64,000 bases of DNA from Theionarchaea archaeon (lineage in GTDB: Archaea > Methanobacteriota_B > Thermococci > Methanofastidiosales > SZ-28-30): assembly GCA_018992685.1 (NCBI GenBank), contig JACVGT010000034.1:14735-78734 (forward strand), given 5' to 3'. The stretch's first letter is position 1; every line of letters begins with the position of its first letter. The notes beneath the pieces were generated by a model. It worked only from the letters and a program-made list of their open reading frames with translations. It searched no databases and had not been told where the DNA came from. Positions 46,374-53,300 of the stretch are shown here, in pieces. A program made the translations under genes and the position numbers.

Positions 46374-46517
46374 ATGACACTAGAAGCAGGAGAAAAACCT
46401 GGAAAAGGAAAGTACAAATGCACGAACTGTGCTGAGGTCATTACGCTAGAAGATCCTTCAGATGTCTTACCTGCATGCCCGGCATGCACGCAGACAGAGT
46501 GGAAGAAGCATGAATGA
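46374..46517 (+). CDS. Small zinc-ribbon protein (47 aa)
   Basis: MTLEAGEKPGKGKYKCTNCAEVITLEDPSDVLPACPACTQTEWKKHE, two CxxC; upstream TATA-like ctttaag; downstream T-tract. Confidence 0.8.
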   Translation: MTLEAGEKPGKGKYKCTNCAEVITLEDPSDVLPACPACTQTEWKKHE

Positions 46518-46971
46518 TTCACCACTCATTTCTCCTTTTTTTCTTTCAGTGTGACTCTCAGTCTGAAATCAATGATTATCGTTTCCACTTCTCCAGTTTT
46601 CAGCCTCTGTCACACAGTTGTCCCCTTCGCTCCTAAATGAAGGAGCTGGACATCAGCCCAGCTCCCAGGTGATATCCGCCTTCTGCAAGATCTGTGCATC
46701 GTGCTGCGTTCTGATGTCACAACTCAGCAGTCTGTCAGGTCAACCCCGACAGATAAAGGCCGATATCTCTTCTGCGCAGGTCCAGATATTAACATGCCGA
46801 GATTTTATGTGAGCATTTCCCCACAGAGATCACACTCTTTCATGAAAATCACAGGGAATCAAATTCAAGCACGGCCACAGTACACTCTTCTCCTACAGCT
46901 CAAATGGAAGATGTAAATCTTTATAAGCTTCTTCAGCAAAGAGGCCGAAATCATGAACCGAGGTTGATAAG

Positions 46972-47217
46972 ATGGATCCCTTATATGTTGTGAATCTGGT
47001 CCTCTGTATCATTATCGTGGCTCTCGGATACTGGGGTTCCAAGAAAAGTGGCGATTCAGTACCGCTCTACATTGGCATTGCCTTTGGACTTTTCGGTATA
47101 TCACATTTGTCAATCCTTTTGGGGCTGAAGGACACCCTCGAAACCCCTCTGATTATTGTCAGATTGTTGGCATACCTGGTAGTGATATTCGCCCTGTACA
47201 AAGTTGCCAAGAAATAA
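46972..47217 (+). CDS. Small 3-TM membrane protein
   Basis: GAGG RBS; TATA tttataag ~46920; T-rich terminator after stop. Confidence 0.75.
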   Translation: MDPLYVVNLVLCIIIVALGYWGSKKSGDSVPLYIGIAFGLFGISHLSILLGLKDTLETPLIIVRLLAYLVVIFALYKVAKK

Positions 47218-47220
47218 GTA

Positions 47221-47240
47221 TTCCTCTTTTCTTTTTTTTT
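47221..47240 (+). terminator. Oligo-T archaeal terminator
   Basis: ttcctcttttcttttttttt immediately after stop 47217. Confidence 0.6.
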
Positions 47241-47294
47241 CGCGTCCTCAGAAGCAAAAAGCATATTCCCACATCGACGGAAGAAAGAAGTACT

Positions 47295-48269
47295 TCATCC
47301 AACGACTGACGGATCTTTTCTCCAGTAGCATTGTACTAATGCATGTGCTTCACTCTGGATGATCTTTCTCTTGAGAAGGTCTCGAAGAAGCAGTGGAATG
47401 TGCAGCCTGTTGATGTCCTGCATCACATAGTCATCACTCTTCATGGAGCCCCTGTCCAGCCACACATCCATGAACAGGTTGTCTGAAACCCTGTAGAACC
47501 AGGTAGTGGTGGGTAGGTGAGAAAAGAGCTCAATGACGAAATCTTCATAGTCGGTCTCCACCATGAAGACATAGGGGTCGTATGCAGGGACAGTCTCGGG
47601 GAAGTAGCACGTGAAGATGGTGCAGCATTCAGGAAGGCGTTCCAGCCACTGGTACGCACTTCCACTCCAGATATTGTGTTTGGCCTTGACGATGGGCTCC
47701 AGTGGTTTCCTGAGATTGTATTTCAATTCTCTGAAGAGTATTTCATCCGTCTCATTCCATTCTATGGATTCTGACCAGTGTGTGTTGATGAGCCCCTGGG
47801 GTAAGTATGTCTCTGGATCAAAGGTGTCCACCATTTCCTGCATGGTCTTGATGGAGTGTTCCCACGAGTGGTCTGGAGCATATGAGATATAGTAGTCCGA
47901 ACGACGTCCTCCCACCACAACCCCATCCAGGTCAAGCTCTTTCAGAGAGATAATGCGCAGATTTGAAAACCCATCCATGAGGGTGTGGTAGACGACATCA
48001 CTGTCTTGAGTGTATGTGCGGAATAACCCGATGGGATCATCACTGCGAATAAAGTAGACATATTCTGCAAAACTCGAAAATGATCTCTTTCTGATCTGTG
48101 GCCCCACAATGTATCCTTTCTCAACTGCGTCTCTTAACCTGGCGCCTGCCGTATTACGGTTTATCCCTAATGCGCTGGCAGCGTCTTTAACCTTGACCCG
48201 GGGGGACCTGTCCAACAGCTGGTATATGATCCTGTATTCTCTTTTGAGGCGTTTTTCAGTGAACTTCAT
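47295..48269 (-). CDS. Double-HTH (Lrp/AsnC-like wHTH) regulator, copy 1
   Basis: N-terminal IYQLLDRSPRVKVKDAASALGINRNTAGARL...GYI; second DEILFRELKYNLRKP... module; ATG 48269 with AGGT RBS. Confidence 0.75.
   Translation of the reverse strand: MKFTEKRLKREYRIIYQLLDRSPRVKVKDAASALGINRNTAGARLRDAVEKGYIVGPQIRKRSFSSFAEYVYFIRSDDPIGLFRTYTQDSDVVYHTLMDGFSNLRIISLKELDLDGVVVGGRRSDYYISYAPDHSWEHSIKTMQEMVDTFDPETYLPQGLINTHWSESIEWNETDEILFRELKYNLRKPLEPIVKAKHNIWSGSAYQWLERLPECCTIFTCYFPETVPAYDPYVFMVETDYEDFVIELFSHLPTTTWFYRVSDNLFMDVWLDRGSMKSDDYVMQDINRLHIPLLLRDLLKRKIIQSEAHALVQCYWRKDPSVVG
47314..48139. repeat. Direct repeat copy 1 (of 48813-49635)
   Basis: About 15 mismatches in ~775 aligned nt by manual count, excluding divergent block 47649-47699. 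Confidence 0.95.
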
Positions 48270-48561
48270 GTCTCTTACCTTTTCGATTTGCAAGATCCTC
48301 CAACCAGTCACACGTAGCTCTGGTTGAACAGAGATGCCTTTCCGAGGTGGGTTCTCGTTTCACCCTTAAAAGATTTTCTGCTTTCAAAGGGATCACTTGA
48401 GTCTTAGTCCAAGAAAAATTGCAGGAATCATTCATAGCTGCTTTAGATTCACTCGGGAGTCTCTAGATTCTGAAATCTTGAAGTATGGCCTGGTAAGGCT
48501 GAAAGCTTGCCTAGAAGAGTCGTGAAGCGACTTTACATTTCGGATTTGCCGTGTTTGATGG

Positions 48562-48603
48562 CAACATTTTTAAAGTAGGCATGAGAATTGAGTAACGAGG
48601 TGG
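48562..48603 (+). promoter_or_regulatory. TATA box and RBS of peptide gene
   Basis: caacattttttaaag then GAGGTGG just upstream of ATG 48609. Confidence 0.55.
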
Positions 48604-48608
48604 AAGAG

Positions 48609-48800
48609 ATGAAAAAGATCTTGGTTCTCCTGCTCTTGGTAGGGGTTTTCATAGGAACCTCAGTGACGGCTGCTGAAGCTTGTGGAGACGTCTTCTCTGA
48701 CGACACTGAACCAGAAGATCCCGCACCAGGGAATGCAGCTCCTGATAACCCGCTGCCTCTTGGTGGAGGCGGTGGAAACGGTGGAGGCGCTCCAGGTTAG
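48609..48800 (+). CDS. Small secreted peptide (63 aa) with Gly-rich C-terminus
   Basis: MKK + hydrophobic signal peptide + acidic/Pro spacer + NPLPLGGGGGNGGGAPG; own TATA and RBS. Confidence 0.8.
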   Translation: MKKILVLLLLVGVFIGTSVTAAEACGDVFSDDTEPEDPAPGNAAPDNPLPLGGGGGNGGGAPG

Positions 48801-48802
48801 AT

Positions 48803-49801
48803 TCATGTGAGGTCTTTTCTCCAGTAGCATTGTACTAATGCATGTGCTTCACTCTGGATGATCTCTCTTTTGAGCAGGTCTCGAACCAGCAGTGGAATGT
48901 GCAACCTGTTGATGTCCTGCATCACATAGTCATCACTCTTCATGGAGCCCCTGTCCAGCCACACATCCATGAACAGGGTGTCTGAAACCCTGTAGAACCA
49001 GGTAGTGGTGGGCAGGTGAGAAAAGAGCTCAATGACGAAATCTTCATAGTCGGTCTCCACCATGAAGACATAGGGGTCGTATGCAGGGACAGTCTCGGGG
49101 AAGTAGCACGTGAAGATGGTGCAGCATTCAGGAAGGCGTTCCAGCCAGCCACTGATGTCGCCTGCAGAAATATGATGGGCTTTCATGAGGGGAGTCAGTG
49201 GTTTCCTGAGATTGTATTTCAATTCTCTGAAGAGTATTTCATCCGTCTCACTCCATTCTACAGATTCTGACCAGTGCGTGTTGATGAGCCCCTGGGGTAA
49301 GTATGTCTCTGGATCAAAGGTGTCCACCATTTCCTGCATGGTCTTGATGGAGTGTTCCCACGAGTGGTCTGGAGCATATGAGATATAGTAGTCCGAACGG
49401 CGTCCTCCCACCACAACCCCATCCAGGTCAAGCTCTTTCAGAGAGATAATACGCAGATTTGAAAACCCATCCATGAGGGTGTGGTAGACGACATCACTGT
49501 CCTGAGTGTATGTGCGGAATAACCCGATGGGATCATCACTGCGAATAAAGTAGACATATTCTGCAAAACTCGAAAATGATCTCTTTCTGATCTGTGGCCC
49601 CACAATGTATCCTTTCTCAACTGCGTCTCTTAACCGTTTCCCTGCATTGCTTGGACGCAACTTCAGGAATCTGGAAAGGTATCTGACTTGTATTCGCGGA
49701 TTCTTGTCCAACGTGTTGAAGATTACTCTGACGTCTCTCTTCCGTTCTTCTGGAACATCCAGTATGTTCATCTCCATCTCCCGTCCTTTAAGATCCGCCA
49801 T
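48803..49801 (-). CDS. Double-HTH (Lrp/AsnC-like wHTH) regulator, copy 2
   Basis: Paralog of 47295-48269; start may be 49771 or 49777. Confidence 0.75.
   Translation of the reverse strand: MADLKGREMEMNILDVPEERKRDVRVIFNTLDKNPRIQVRYLSRFLKLRPSNAGKRLRDAVEKGYIVGPQIRKRSFSSFAEYVYFIRSDDPIGLFRTYTQDSDVVYHTLMDGFSNLRIISLKELDLDGVVVGGRRSDYYISYAPDHSWEHSIKTMQEMVDTFDPETYLPQGLINTHWSESVEWSETDEILFRELKYNLRKPLTPLMKAHHISAGDISGWLERLPECCTIFTCYFPETVPAYDPYVFMVETDYEDFVIELFSHLPTTTWFYRVSDTLFMDVWLDRGSMKSDDYVMQDINRLHIPLLVRDLLKREIIQSEAHALVQCYWRKDLT
48813..49635. repeat. Direct repeat copy 2 (of 47314-48139)
   Basis: Near-identical except block 49148-49195. Confidence 0.95.
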
Positions 49802-50483
49802 CCCTGTACACAGCGAGATGCAACATTCAATGCTGCATAAATACCTTTTATTGGTTCTTTATAAATATTGTGGAGCCAGGCCTTGCTGTTTTCATATTTT
49901 TAGACAAGTTCTTAGAGCAGAGATTTTCAAGAGTAAAAAATAGCACGGAATAATAATATAATTACGCAATTTTGAACTGAGGGACAGGAGAAGCAGCTAG
50001 GGTTTCTTTGGAAAACGAGGCTATGGAAGATACGTCCCGACCGGAGAAATACCCAAGCCACATTTGGTAGGCACATGGTCTCTGAATGTGATGGACACTG
50101 ATTGCCGGCTGTGACGTCACCTCTCATCACGCCTCAACAACTCAACCTTTCTAGAATGAGAAGGGAGGCGGAATCCTTGGCGGTGATAGCTTTGAAGCAG
50201 GTCCCGCCTCCATGCAAGAATCTGATATGGTTTTTATATAATCGTTTGGTCTGCACAGAACAGAGCAAACCCAAGTCCACCACCAAAGGACGTCTACGCA
50301 AGAATACCTGGATGTTCAAGCACTTCTTTGGATTGAGAAGACTGTCCTACATTCAGATCGATACGCAGTTTGAGGAGAACGTAGGTTCAGTACAGTGTAC
50401 AGAGTTGATGAAAGCACAGGGTGCTCAGACTGCCAGAACCTCCCTCCTGCAGCTCTCACTTCCCAGAATTGACAGTTCGAGTA

Positions 50484-51260
50484 TTACAGTTTCACTGCTT
50501 CAATGATCAGAGACTGCGGGATTCTCAATTCCAACACGAGATGAGGATGGATTGGATGTCTAGGCCTGGGTTCTTTCAGCCGAGAGACAAGAAATCCAGC
50601 AGTGTTAAGAGCGTCAAAATACTCAGTTACTGTGCGGTGAAACGCTGTGGTGACAAAGTGCTGGGCCAGTCGTGCCATATTCCAATGAATGGAGTAGCTG
50701 CAGGTCTCAAAGTAGTGATCCACCTTGTAGTAGTGAGGAGATTCATTGTGTGATGCGCCTTCCGGGTATTCCCATCCCCCGATGATCTTGTCATTGATTC
50801 TCCTTTTCTCAAAGCAAGGATGAGGAATAACAGCTAGAAATCGTCCCCTCACGATAAGAACTCTCCATATTTCCTGTATAGCCTTGATATACAGTTCAAT
50901 GTCCTGGAGAGCCATGAAGCACGTGACAATATCAAAAGTGCGTCTCTTGAACACATTCAGGTTGCACACATCAGCCACCACGTATTCTATCCCGAGCGGT
51001 TCTTTTTCCTCCTCCTGGAGGGCCAGAGAGATCATGGCCTCTGAAGAATCAACTCCGGTGACCACAGCTCCTTTCTTGGCCATTAAACGAGTGTTGTACC
51101 CTTCACCACATGCAGCATCCAGGATTTTACGTCCAGAGAGTGAGCCCAGCATGTCAAACATTGCAGGATTGTTGAGTTCATCTCTATAGTAGTCTTTTCC
51201 TGTACGAACAAAGGCGGCCCATGCTTCTGCTGCTTCATCCCATTCTCGGGTTACATTCAT
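50484..51260 (-). CDS. Class I SAM-dependent methyltransferase
   Basis: ILDAACGEG, FDIVTC, HPCF, FHRT...Y. Confidence 0.88.
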   Translation of the reverse strand: MNVTREWDEAAEAWAAFVRTGKDYYRDELNNPAMFDMLGSLSGRKILDAACGEGYNTRLMAKKGAVVTGVDSSEAMISLALQEEEKEPLGIEYVVADVCNLNVFKRRTFDIVTCFMALQDIELYIKAIQEIWRVLIVRGRFLAVIPHPCFEKRRINDKIIGGWEYPEGASHNESPHYYKVDHYFETCSYSIHWNMARLAQHFVTTAFHRTVTEYFDALNTAGFLVSRLKEPRPRHPIHPHLVLELRIPQSLIIEAVKL

Positions 51261-52050: not shown

Positions 52051-53300
52051 GAAGGTTCAATCAGGTTCGCAGAGACCACATGGTACGCCTTTTCTTCAAG
52101 CTCGTCCAGGTATTTTCCTCCCTTGAGATAGAGAGTCAGGTAGGGTATAACCTCGTTAGGAACTGGCAGGCTCTCAACCTCTCTCTGGTTCATCTGGGTA
52201 ATACCTGTATCCAGGGTTTCCAGAGTCGCGACTGCCCTATGGAACGGAGGAACGTTCTTTTCTTGAAGAATGTGCTTCCTGAGATAGCCGACTCTCAGCA
52301 GGAACTCTGAGCATTTCAGATTTCCAGGAATTCTCCCGTGAGGTACATATCGGTCTAATGCGTACCTCATACTGTGTTCATATCCGATCTTTTATCCTTT
52401 GACCTCAGGATACACGAACTCTGTTTTTTCAATCTGATTCACATTGATGTTCCCATATAGGTCGTTATTGCCATACAGGAGTTCATACCTTCGAAGGAGG
52501 TGAGGGTAGTGTTCTTGTACCACAGAGAGGAACTCCTGTTTGCTGCGCCCGGGTTTCAGAGTCAATCCCCAGCAGTACACGAATTCTGCCTGCGCTTCCT
52601 TGGCTCTTGTGTATAGCGCTTCCATGTTTTCATCAGTGTCCCCGATGAAGGGAAGCACGGGATAGAAATGAACACCCGCATGAATTCCCTCTTTTCTCAA
52701 GGTTCTGATTGCTGCAAAGCGTTCGTCTGTCGTGCTTGCATGTGGTTCGAAGATTCTCTGGGATTCATTGTCTGCAAGCGTAATGGTGAAACTGCAGCAG
52801 ACATGCGAAGTCTCATTGATAGACTTCAACAGGTCAAGATCCCGCAAGAGTAGAGTATTCTTGGTGAGAATGAAGACGGGGAGCCCATAGTCACGAGCAA
52901 TGGTCAACAGAGTTCTGGTCATTCTGGTTTCAGCTTCTGCGGGCTGGTAGACATCGCACACACCACCTCCAAGGTGGAGCACGAATTTAGGGGGCTGGGT
53001 TTTTTGAGCTGAGTCTTTCAAAGAAGGAATGAAATCCACCAGAGTGTCAGTTTTCTGCCTGTGAAGGGGGATAAATCCTTTCTTTCTGAAAAATCGTTCC
53101 AGGAGAATGGGTGCATTCGTTTTCACCTTGATGCGCTGGGAAAAATCTTCATGCATGAAATATCCTTCCGATTTTCCATCACAATACACACAATCATGGT
53201 AGCATCCCTGGTATGGGTTGAGATAGGCCTCACCCCAGGAGAAGAGGCTGGGAGAACTCTTCCTCATGATGGATTTTGCCTCGTATGGCTGCAGTATCAT
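52047..53300 (-). pseudogene. SPL-like radical SAM gene interrupted by one in-frame TAA (52392-52394)
   Basis: NPYQGCYHDCVYC; reads ...VKG*KIGYEHSMRY... in one frame into ORF 52047-52370. Confidence 0.75.

Follow-up and report, generated by a model that had tools for sequence, protein, structure and literature searches.

The subject of this analysis is a gene for a 63-residue micropeptide, which lies tail to tail with a gene for an Lrp/AsnC-like regulator in a 64,000-nucleotide stretch of contig JACVGT010000034.1 (assembly GCA_018992685.1, positions 14,735 to 78,734) from a Theionarchaea archaeon. This whole stretch is called the window below, and coordinates refer to it unless a contig or locus is named. 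There are two tandem copies of the regulator gene, one on either side of the peptide gene: copy 2 is convergent with it and copy 1 divergent from it, as shown in Table 1. The analyses show the peptide gene and the regulator family to be tightly linked. The module that they form is real and conserved and, as far as the literature was searched, undescribed; a function as peptide and receptor is plausible.

The peptide gene and its surroundings

The open reading frame (ORF) runs on the + strand from an ATG at 48609 to a TAG at 48798–48800, and its product of 63 residues reads MKKILVLLLLVGVFIGTSVTAAEACGD...NPLPLGGGGGNGGGAPG. The span of 48560–48805 given for it in the preliminary description, which was made from the sequence alone, comprises the ORF plus its promoter. 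A TATA-like TTTTTAAA is located at 48567–48574, 42 nt from the ATG, with GCAACA, resembling the TFB-recognition element (BRE), just before it; a Shine–Dalgarno sequence follows. Both signals are kept at fixed distances in the homologues. The tetramer GGTG is found at −17 to −4 in 34/36 unique homologues, against 5.4% of 5000 random ATGs from the genome, and a TATA-like hexamer at −56 to −30 in 35/36, against 2.9% of 5000 such ATGs (the start of L077 was shifted to its second Met for these counts). The ORF with a TATA box and ribosome-binding site of its own, as first described, is therefore real.

The earlier account of the layout is equally correct. The stop codon of regulator copy 2 begins 2 nt past that of the peptide gene, on the opposite strand, and a spacer of 339 nt separates the peptide gene from the divergent copy 1. 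The stretch 48110–48842, which covers the 5′ part of copy 1, all of the peptide gene with the intervening spacer, and 40 nt at the end of copy 2, is present as a single contig with 0 differences in sequencing runs of two other studies (X1 and X3). A third run (X8) reaches 200 nt into copy 2 with 7 differences, and within 46900–50300 some runs had parts without contig cover. Because 48110–48842 is intact in independent assemblies, the tail-to-tail junction is no artefact of the present assembly.

The oligo-T sequence CTTTTCT that follows the peptide gene is a candidate terminator. It is the antisense of the conserved C-terminal W-R-K codons of the regulator. On the peptide strand, a run of four or more T occurs within 60 nt past the stop in 29/36 homologues, at a median offset of 14 nt; on the regulator strand, the first such run is some 181 nt inside the peptide gene, antisense of its Shine–Dalgarno sequence and start, in 27/36, both counts being those of a script run without a control.

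Table 1. Positions of the features discussed, in window coordinates except for the last row, which gives contigs of the window's own genome (G000).
Feature	Position	Strand	Basis
Micropeptide gene, 63 residues, stop codon included	48609..48800	+	ORF reading and homologues
Regulator copy 2, 332 residues, predicted fused double Lrp/AsnC-like protein, (HTH + RAM) twice, convergent with the peptide gene	48803..49801	-	Pfam, AlphaFold2, structural matches
Regulator copy 1, 324 residues from ATG 48269, divergent from the peptide gene	47295..48269	-	
Promoter of the peptide gene, BRE-like GCAACA followed by TATA box TTTTTAAA	48561..48574	+	read from the sequence
Shine–Dalgarno sequence GAGGTGG, 5 nt ahead of the ATG	48597..48603	+	read from the sequence
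Residues 1–24, Sec-type signal peptide or membrane anchor (MKK, hydrophobic stretch, AAEA), putative cleavage	48609..48680	+	composition, c-region of the family
Residues 25–49, acidic Pro/Ser-rich spacer, fast-varying among homologues	48681..48755	+	family composition
Residues 50–63, conserved C-terminal module P-L-G5-N-G3-A-P-G	48756..48797	+	family conservation
CTTTTCT oligo-T, 14 nt past the peptide stop, candidate terminator of the peptide gene	48814..48820	+	putative function
Repeat unit, body of the copy 1 gene	47314..48139	.	94–100% identity per 100 nt to 48813–49635 except one patch
Repeat unit, second copy, body of the copy 2 gene	48813..49635	.	
Divergent patch, helix B and start of helix C of the second HTH	49113..49212	-	80% identity to 47614–47716
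Loci of the signal-less class of partner peptides	C22:4508-5323, C19:6701-7495, C14:66189-67016, C5:179515-179814, C18:14919-15725, C13:59942-60139		

The peptide family

The peptide matched no family in Pfam, NCBIfam or PADLOC. The ESM Atlas gave only a 0.76 match to an unnamed cluster, which is no lead, and 46800–50400 had no match in Rfam at E ≤ 0.1. Three close homologues of 63–66 residues emerged from a word-indexed search; all end in PLPCGGGGGNGGGAPG, and two are named at source as hypothetical proteins of Theionarchaea archaeon. A family profile of 37 members (A2), searched against 1.84 billion cluster representatives, found 220 clusters (50% identity) at E ≤ 0.001, of which 129 reach E ≤ 1e-10. 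Among the top 150 matches, nearly all run end to end, with lengths of 56–118 residues, mostly 60–70. The preliminary description had stated, tentatively, that mini-proteins of the type P(C/L)GGG...PG recur in Theionarchaea-like genomes, and for Theionarchaea this is true. One peptide match, L004 (contig C10 of genome G003), proved false, being a ribosomal-protein region.

Among the 148 representatives examined (P0001 and P0004, already known, were left out), 141 have a C-terminal Pro-Gly, 117 start with MKK or MRK, and 107 contain Cys among the last 18 residues; Gly accounts for a median of 8 of the last 14. The tail is similarly constrained in the 36 unique coding sequences, with Gly at −1 in 36/36, Pro at −2 in 35/36, A, I or V at −3 in 30/36 and Gly at −7 in 35/36. 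A Cys is absent from the tail in 13/36, the window copy included, where Leu51 occupies the position that is Cys in most homologues. The Gly codons of the 36 tails are GGT (122), GGA (87), GGC (65) and GGG (14). Third positions are thus free under fixed Gly residues, which argues for constraint on the protein rather than on G-rich DNA. We conclude that the small ORF is confirmed as a real gene, translated-looking, of a sizeable family with a shared architecture.

The N-terminal part of the family consists of a basic n-region, an uncharged run with a median of 19 residues, and a conserved c-region motif G-T-x-[S/A] directly before the first acidic residues (the anchor Gly is present in 138/152 sequences, T at +1 in 93 and S or A at +3 in 88, followed by E or D). 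This n-h-c layout fits a Sec signal that would be cleaved off; a membrane anchor is also compatible with it. In the window peptide the spacer opens with a Cys directly after AAEA. A lipoprotein with a lipobox was considered and dropped, as the Cys after the signal is not conserved; a substrate of the archaeosortase/PGF-CTERM type was dropped for want of a C-terminal transmembrane segment, and a type IV pilin signal for its mismatch of layout. The middle part has a composition of E 0.13, D 0.12 and S 0.125, and the median net charge past residue 24 is −8.

The tail module occurs twice in tandem in P0241 and P0242 (L076, 2948–3199), the two units directly abutting in P0241. This duplication indicates that the P-C-G...x-P-G stretch of about 14 residues is a discrete unit. 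We note that if the tail module were the active unit, cleavage after the internal Pro-Gly would be needed in these two proteins.

Fold and distribution of the regulator

The helix-turn-helix (HTH) domain at the N-terminus of the regulator scores 22.5 bits against Pfam HTH_24 in copy 2 and 21.5 bits in copy 1, just under the cut-off of 21.9. At E ≤ 0.1 no Pfam family matched beyond HTH models, and there was no match to AsnC_trans_reg; a scan of NCBIfam gave nothing, and comparison of the regulator profile with PDB sequences gave matches at the level of the HTH only. For copy 1, an alternative upstream start at GTG 48311 is possible.

The structure of the regulator was predicted using AlphaFold2 from 41 aligned members, with a predicted local distance difference test (pLDDT) of 89.4 and a predicted template modelling (TM) score of 0.86. 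The model consists of one unit repeated twice, in which three helices are followed by a β-α-β-β-α-β (RAM) domain, and all 41 aligned members have the two modules in one chain of 320–330 residues. The top match in Foldseek was the siroheme decarboxylase NirDL (4ch7, E = 3.4e-6, TM-score 0.47/0.50), at 11–12% identity, followed by single Lrp/AsnC regulators over half of the length. A comparison with 48,161 chains using VIA-align gave a similar picture: 4czc_A matched with Z = 11.7 and a root-mean-square deviation of 4.4 Å over 248 residues, Lrp/AsnC proteins matched residues ~16–145 with Z of 7–8.3, and E. coli AsnC matched residues 181–331 with Z = 7.1. The regulator is thus predicted to be a fused double Lrp/AsnC module with a NirDL-like architecture, and would function as a DNA-binding sensor. 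A role as an enzyme (siroheme decarboxylase) is unlikely, because of the 11–12% identity, the lack of a haem context, the presence of some 20 copies per genome, and a winged HTH that still scores as such. Conservation per domain in the 41-member alignment is fairly even, from 0.54 to 0.65, and marks out no domain as a peptide pocket.

In the window's own genome there are 24 tblastn matches to the regulator, representing about 20 genes, and at least 16 matches were scored in each of three genomes of the genus. The regulator family is present in 3/3 other genomes of the window's taxonomic family and in 1/6 of the sister family; in the rest of the class it was found in none of the genomes searched (0/17, 0/7, 0/2 and 0/97). 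A large protein collection contained 211 relatives, and those with a named source come from Theionarchaea or Methanofastidiosia. On these counts the regulator is confined to Theionarchaea-type genomes, and has expanded within this lineage.

Pairing of the peptide and regulator genes

A scan for convergent ORFs at the 3′ ends of the regulator matches in the own genome found a Gly-tailed ORF at 9/24. Three of these partners have a hydrophobic N-terminus (the window copy, C14:53598 and C6:24046). The other six have no hydrophobic segment, and most of them start with a conserved MNFLKGWPFEPL-type motif; their ends are of the kind ...GESGGGSPG or ...GGGDGDGPFPG, apart from two that differ (..NPT and ..MPC). 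This signal-less class (L014, L020, L024, L031, L028 and L032; Table 1) is 28–48 residues long and is located beside more distant regulator paralogues. The stretch just upstream of several of these mini-ORFs is also conserved, and one frame of it reads NYYPNIFNQFCKI.

As a control, all 1690 stop-to-stop ORFs of at least 250 residues in the own genome were checked for a convergent ORF whose last 16 residues include 5 or more Gly. Only 11 had one, and seven of these were regulator paralogues. Gly-tailed partners thus accompany 7/19 paralogues and 4/1671 other ORFs (Fisher P = 2e-12, a value that overstates the case because the paralogues are kin). Outside the own genome, 89 related loci were examined, 80 on metagenome contigs and 9 in species genomes. 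After sorting out 11 without a regulator stop, 5 exact duplicates and 6 with less than 200 nt of room, 67 were evaluable, with a convergent Gly-tailed ORF at 41. The stop codons of the two genes overlap (gap −4) at 35 of these paired loci, so that the gap of +2 in the window is a minor variant. The linkage between the peptide and the regulator family, proposed as a check in the preliminary description, is therefore strongly positive: it is tight and conserved.

The pair also occurs in two genomes of the same genus (L002, L003 and L008) and in a second genus of the family (L122), where the regulator is far more divergent, with a profile E of 7e-52 compared with 1e-141 to 1e-162 for the closest copies. 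At the single regulator homologue of the sister family (L123, genome G004) there is no Gly-tailed ORF at the 3′ end.

A Pfam scan of 67 further ORFs of at least 100 residues from 35 loci with a full peptide found no recurrent transporter, protease or maturase. The neighbours are mixed (HAD hydrolase, KaiC, NAC, Ssb, ribosomal L10e, aconitase, SDR, RNase HII, PIN and restriction enzyme, among others), and are held in common only among orthologous loci. Radical SAM and TP_methylase proteins were each seen once among these ORFs, and no haem gene recurs. In view of the absence of a recurrent third partner, the conserved unit consists of two genes.

Three loci deserve a remark of their own. In L008 (667–1544) the regulator is split into two ORFs of 150 and 142 residues, still facing an intact gene for a Gly-tailed peptide, with which the regulator's end shares 47 nt; this may be a decaying receptor or an assembly frameshift. 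On contig C8 of the own genome, some 139 nt beyond the stop of the paralogue at C8:46123–46923, there is a convergent short ORF with a repeated KLGGGPGVPT, which was not counted as a Gly-tailed partner owing to its distance and its different end. Finally, the paralogue at C1:299338–299658 (L026) is convergent, with a gap of 42 nt, with a permease gene of the OppB/DppB type, which is a single case.

Tandem copies of the regulator

Between the proteins encoded by the two regulator copies of the window there are two differences. The first comprises the N-terminal 55 residues, which cover the first HTH up to the start of the recognition helix and are unrelated; the second, at residues ~190–207, affects helix B and the start of helix C in the second HTH. 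The rest, including both RAM domains, is the same. The patch of 80% identity (Table 1) suggests that the DNA-reading parts have been diversified in a targeted way or are a mosaic produced by recombination. At locus L112 (712–3154) the whole module is duplicated in tandem, in the order regulator, peptide, regulator, peptide; both peptides have one and the same sequence, and between the regulators only the N-terminal HTH differs. Judged from these sequences, the tandem copies would represent one sensor body with different DNA-reading heads. With sensor bodies near-identical and heads differing, the same signal would act on two different sets of DNA targets.

Where copy 2 has the Gly-tailed peptide gene, copy 1 has a different convergent neighbour, 77 nt from its stop: a gene at 46972–47217 (+) for an 81-residue membrane protein of two helices, with a weak match to DUF5985 (E = 2e-4, below the cut-off). 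Other genes in the surroundings are a 47-residue zinc-ribbon mini-protein at 46374–46517 (+; DUF1451 zinc-ribbon domain, E = 1e-8), a class I SAM methyltransferase at 50484–51260 (−; Methyltransf_11, E = 1e-20), and an ORF with a CxxxCxxC motif of the radical-SAM type at 52392–53300 (−). The last two do not recur beside other copies of the module.

A possible ligand and its receptor

We favour, tentatively, a reading in which the neighbouring regulator has the peptide as its cognate ligand and recognises it by the 14-residue C-terminal Gly-x-Pro-Gly module, in a logic like that of the bacterial RRNPP systems. The route that we infer leads from export, cleavage and processing through uptake to binding of the regulator, DNA binding and an effect on transcription. 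The peptide would be made from its own strong promoter and exported, and signal peptidase, possibly with further proteases, would trim the pre-peptide. After uptake, the C-terminal module with its free Pro-Gly carboxylate would bind the cytoplasmic regulator; the RAM domains would sense the ligand, and the DNA binding of the regulator would change. In the window, one peptide gene may serve two regulator copies with differing DNA-reading heads.

The tail is proposed as the recognised part because it is the sole feature common to the signal-bearing and the signal-less partner peptides, because it is a duplicable unit, and because the gene beside it encodes a regulator with ligand-sensing domains and there is no other conserved partner. 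The own genome contains six genes for OppA-type (SBP_bac_5) binding proteins and two for S26 signal peptidases, which permit an export–import route without showing it. The preliminary description had suggested predicting the complex of peptide and regulator. With residues 25–63 of the peptide, three predictions scored 0.40, 0.47 and 0.23 (median 0.40), while the best of three controls scored 0.00; the pLDDT of the partner was 37–49, and agreement between the runs was at least 39% of contacts. The mark set for this score is reached by 116/157 solved complexes and 2/215 mismatches, and at scores of 0.60 or less by 18/157 and by both mismatches. The prediction thus raises the odds of binding only a little.

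A number of observations weigh against this reading. The complex score falls in a band that is more often wrong than right unless binding is likely beforehand. No Gly-tailed ORF was found at 26/67 evaluable loci, nor at the 3′ end of copy 1 in the window. RAM domains bind free amino acids and are not known to take a peptide as ligand. With the peptide outside the cell and the regulator in the cytoplasm, uptake must be assumed, and the signal-less sister class misfits an export–import route altogether. The tails are alike among paralogues, and therefore some 20 parallel channels per cell would risk cross-talk. The convergent orientation is unlike that of known receptor–propeptide cassettes. Divergence of the regulator and of the mature peptide is uncorrelated (Spearman r = 0.03, reached in 773/2000 permutations). 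There is co-variation only in close pairs, where at least 60% regulator identity goes with a peptide similarity of 0.52, compared with 0.38, and the co-divergence test is uninformative about binding.

Alternative explanations

It is possible, if rather doubtful, that the two genes form a cis-antisense pair. The peptide would then have an extracellular or membrane role of its own (at the surface, in metal binding or as an antagonist), and the convergent transcripts would damp each other, or the regulator would control the peptide promoter. The mRNA of the regulator would be antisense to the entire peptide gene, and the peptide transcript would read through into the 3′ end of the regulator. Such an arrangement fits the overlap of the stops in 35/41 loci, which means that each 3′ untranslated region must lie in the other gene, and also the positions of the T runs on both strands, the overall lack of correlation between the divergence of peptide and regulator, and the possession by the peptide gene of its own consensus-like promoter and Shine–Dalgarno sequence. 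It leaves unexplained, however, why both the signal-bearing and the signal-less class conserve the Gly-x-Pro-Gly end as protein sequence, and why only this regulator family has such partners; moreover, local regulators are usually divergent from their targets and not convergent. Since it is compatible with a ligand and receptor, the two explanations are not exclusive and can coexist.

The remaining explanations concern the Gly-rich tail itself. The preliminary description had offered as an alternative that the peptide is the precursor of a ribosomally synthesised and post-translationally modified peptide (RiPP). The Cys-Gly-rich C-terminal module would then be a core modified by enzymes encoded elsewhere, and the winged-helix protein would act as a recognition or chaperone partner. 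We consider this improbable. The layout does resemble a leader joined to a core, in that P-x-P-C-G-G-G is conserved, 107/148 representatives have a Cys within their last 18 residues and the core is in tandem in P0241 and P0242; winged-helix domains are leader-recognition elements in many RiPP pathways, and a radical-SAM gene (52392–53300) is 3.6 kb away. The reading is nevertheless weak because there is no conserved third gene and no maturase was found: no modifying-enzyme family recurs among the 67 neighbouring ORFs of the 35 loci, with radical SAM seen just once, and the own genome, 91% complete, yielded no YcaO. In addition, the Cys is dispensable, a Sec signal ahead of the core is atypical for RiPPs, and the fold of the regulator is that of Lrp/AsnC and not of a PqqD-like RiPP recognition element. 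More remote still is a glycine-sensing leader ORF, in which the supply of Gly-tRNA would set the speed of the ribosome over 8–10 Gly codons before the Pro-Gly stop, and a paused ribosome would modulate termination at the oligo-T 14 nt downstream, so controlling antisense transcription into the Lrp-type gene. The median of 8 Gly in the last 14 residues and the median distance of the oligo-T past the stop are what such a leader would have, Lrp-family regulators are responsive to amino acids, and attenuation leaders are rich in the residue sensed. At 60–70 residues the ORF is long for a leader, though, and the putative signal peptide and the acidic spacer are retained throughout the family, just as the sister class keeps its MNFLKGWPFEPL N-terminus, which a leader ORF would not need; the non-Gly positions of the tail (Pro at −2 and A, I or V at −3) are under selection at the protein level. 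The idea that there is no gene at all, merely a chance ORF or conserved non-coding G-rich DNA at the 3′ end of the regulator, might be prompted by the shortness of the ORF, its low-complexity tail and the lack of a Pfam or NCBIfam family. It can for practical purposes be dismissed, in the face of 220 clusters of the same length and architecture, third codon positions that vary freely under fixed residues, a Shine–Dalgarno sequence and TATA box at fixed distances in nearly all homologues, and a conserved hydrophobic N-terminus.

Novelty and significance

Literature searches on Theionarchaea, on tandem or fused Lrp proteins, and on archaeal peptide pheromones and quorum sensing turned up no account of this peptide family, of the fused regulator or of their pairing, nor any report of a peptide-and-receptor pair from Archaea. 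In the excerpted text of PMC9258230, Theionarchaea are mentioned only for a TFIIH-like family.

Extending the proposal of a peptide ligand and its receptor to the whole genome, one may speculate, with a good deal of doubt, that Theionarchaea run some 10–20 encoded peptide signals per genome, each sensed by its own fused double Lrp/AsnC receptor via the RAM domains, and that tandem copies route one signal to different DNA targets. If true, this would be the first peptide-based system for signalling between cells (or autocrine signalling) in Archaea, and the first domain of the RAM/ACT type to read the C-terminus of an encoded peptide instead of a free amino acid. The peptide family of 220 clusters, together with a putative receptor family for which there is a confident structural model, makes a concrete candidate. 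It is also a tractable one, even though the organism is uncultured, consisting of a 14-residue module that can be synthesised and a soluble protein of about 330 residues that can be expressed in E. coli. Even if signalling is the wrong explanation, the regulators are among the largest lineage-specific regulator expansions in these sediment archaea, the gene pair shows convergence with overlapping stop codons in an unusually strict form, and the peptides are a new micropeptide family missed by Pfam, NCBIfam and PADLOC.

Comparison with known systems

The RRNPP(A) systems of Bacillota and their phages (Rap/Phr, PlcR/PapR, NprR/NprX and AimR/AimP) resemble the present module in that the gene for a small pro-peptide with a signal, putative in the present case, abuts that for a cytoplasmic HTH regulator, the conserved and presumably active part is the C-terminus of the pro-peptide, there are many paralogous pairs per genome, and oligopeptide-binding proteins are encoded in the genome. 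According to an excerpt of PMC11343458, rare RRNPP pro-peptides likewise carry the active unit twice. The receptor here has, in contrast, no TPR domain, its predicted fold is that of a fused double Lrp/AsnC protein, and no TPR protein is among its structural matches. The genes are convergent with overlapping stops and not co-directional, the host is archaeal, the Gly-rich tails are much alike among paralogues, there is a sister class with no signal peptide, and the present module is known from sequence and models. The comparison with RRNPP systems made in the preliminary description therefore holds as regards a pro-peptide with a putative export signal beside a regulator, but is an analogy and does not make the module a member of that family.

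Attenuation leaders such as trpL, hisL and thrL share with the peptide gene a short ORF, a run of one residue before the stop and a terminator-like T stretch. They differ in that the present ORF is much longer, has a conserved putative signal peptide and non-Gly motifs, is on the strand opposite to the gene that would be controlled, and comes from an archaeal host.

For the regulator, NirDL/AhbAB proteins (4ch7 and 4czc) are the best whole-length match and have the same tandem Lrp-like architecture in one chain. The differences lie in the identity of only 11–12%, the absence of haem-pathway genes among the neighbours seen, the some 20 paralogues per genome, and an N-terminal HTH that still scores as a DNA-binding winged HTH. 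Each half of the regulator also resembles an Lrp/AsnC protein, with an HTH (at the N-terminus, HTH_24) followed by a β-α-β-β-α-β RAM domain. However, Lrp/AsnC proteins have a single module of about 150 residues and form dimers or higher oligomers, whereas two modules are joined here in one chain of about 320–330 residues, which does not match AsnC_trans_reg in Pfam and is confined to a single archaeal lineage, where genomes have at least 16 copies each. Furthermore, the known ligands of Lrp/AsnC proteins are free amino acids, whereas the regulator described here is paired with an encoded peptide.

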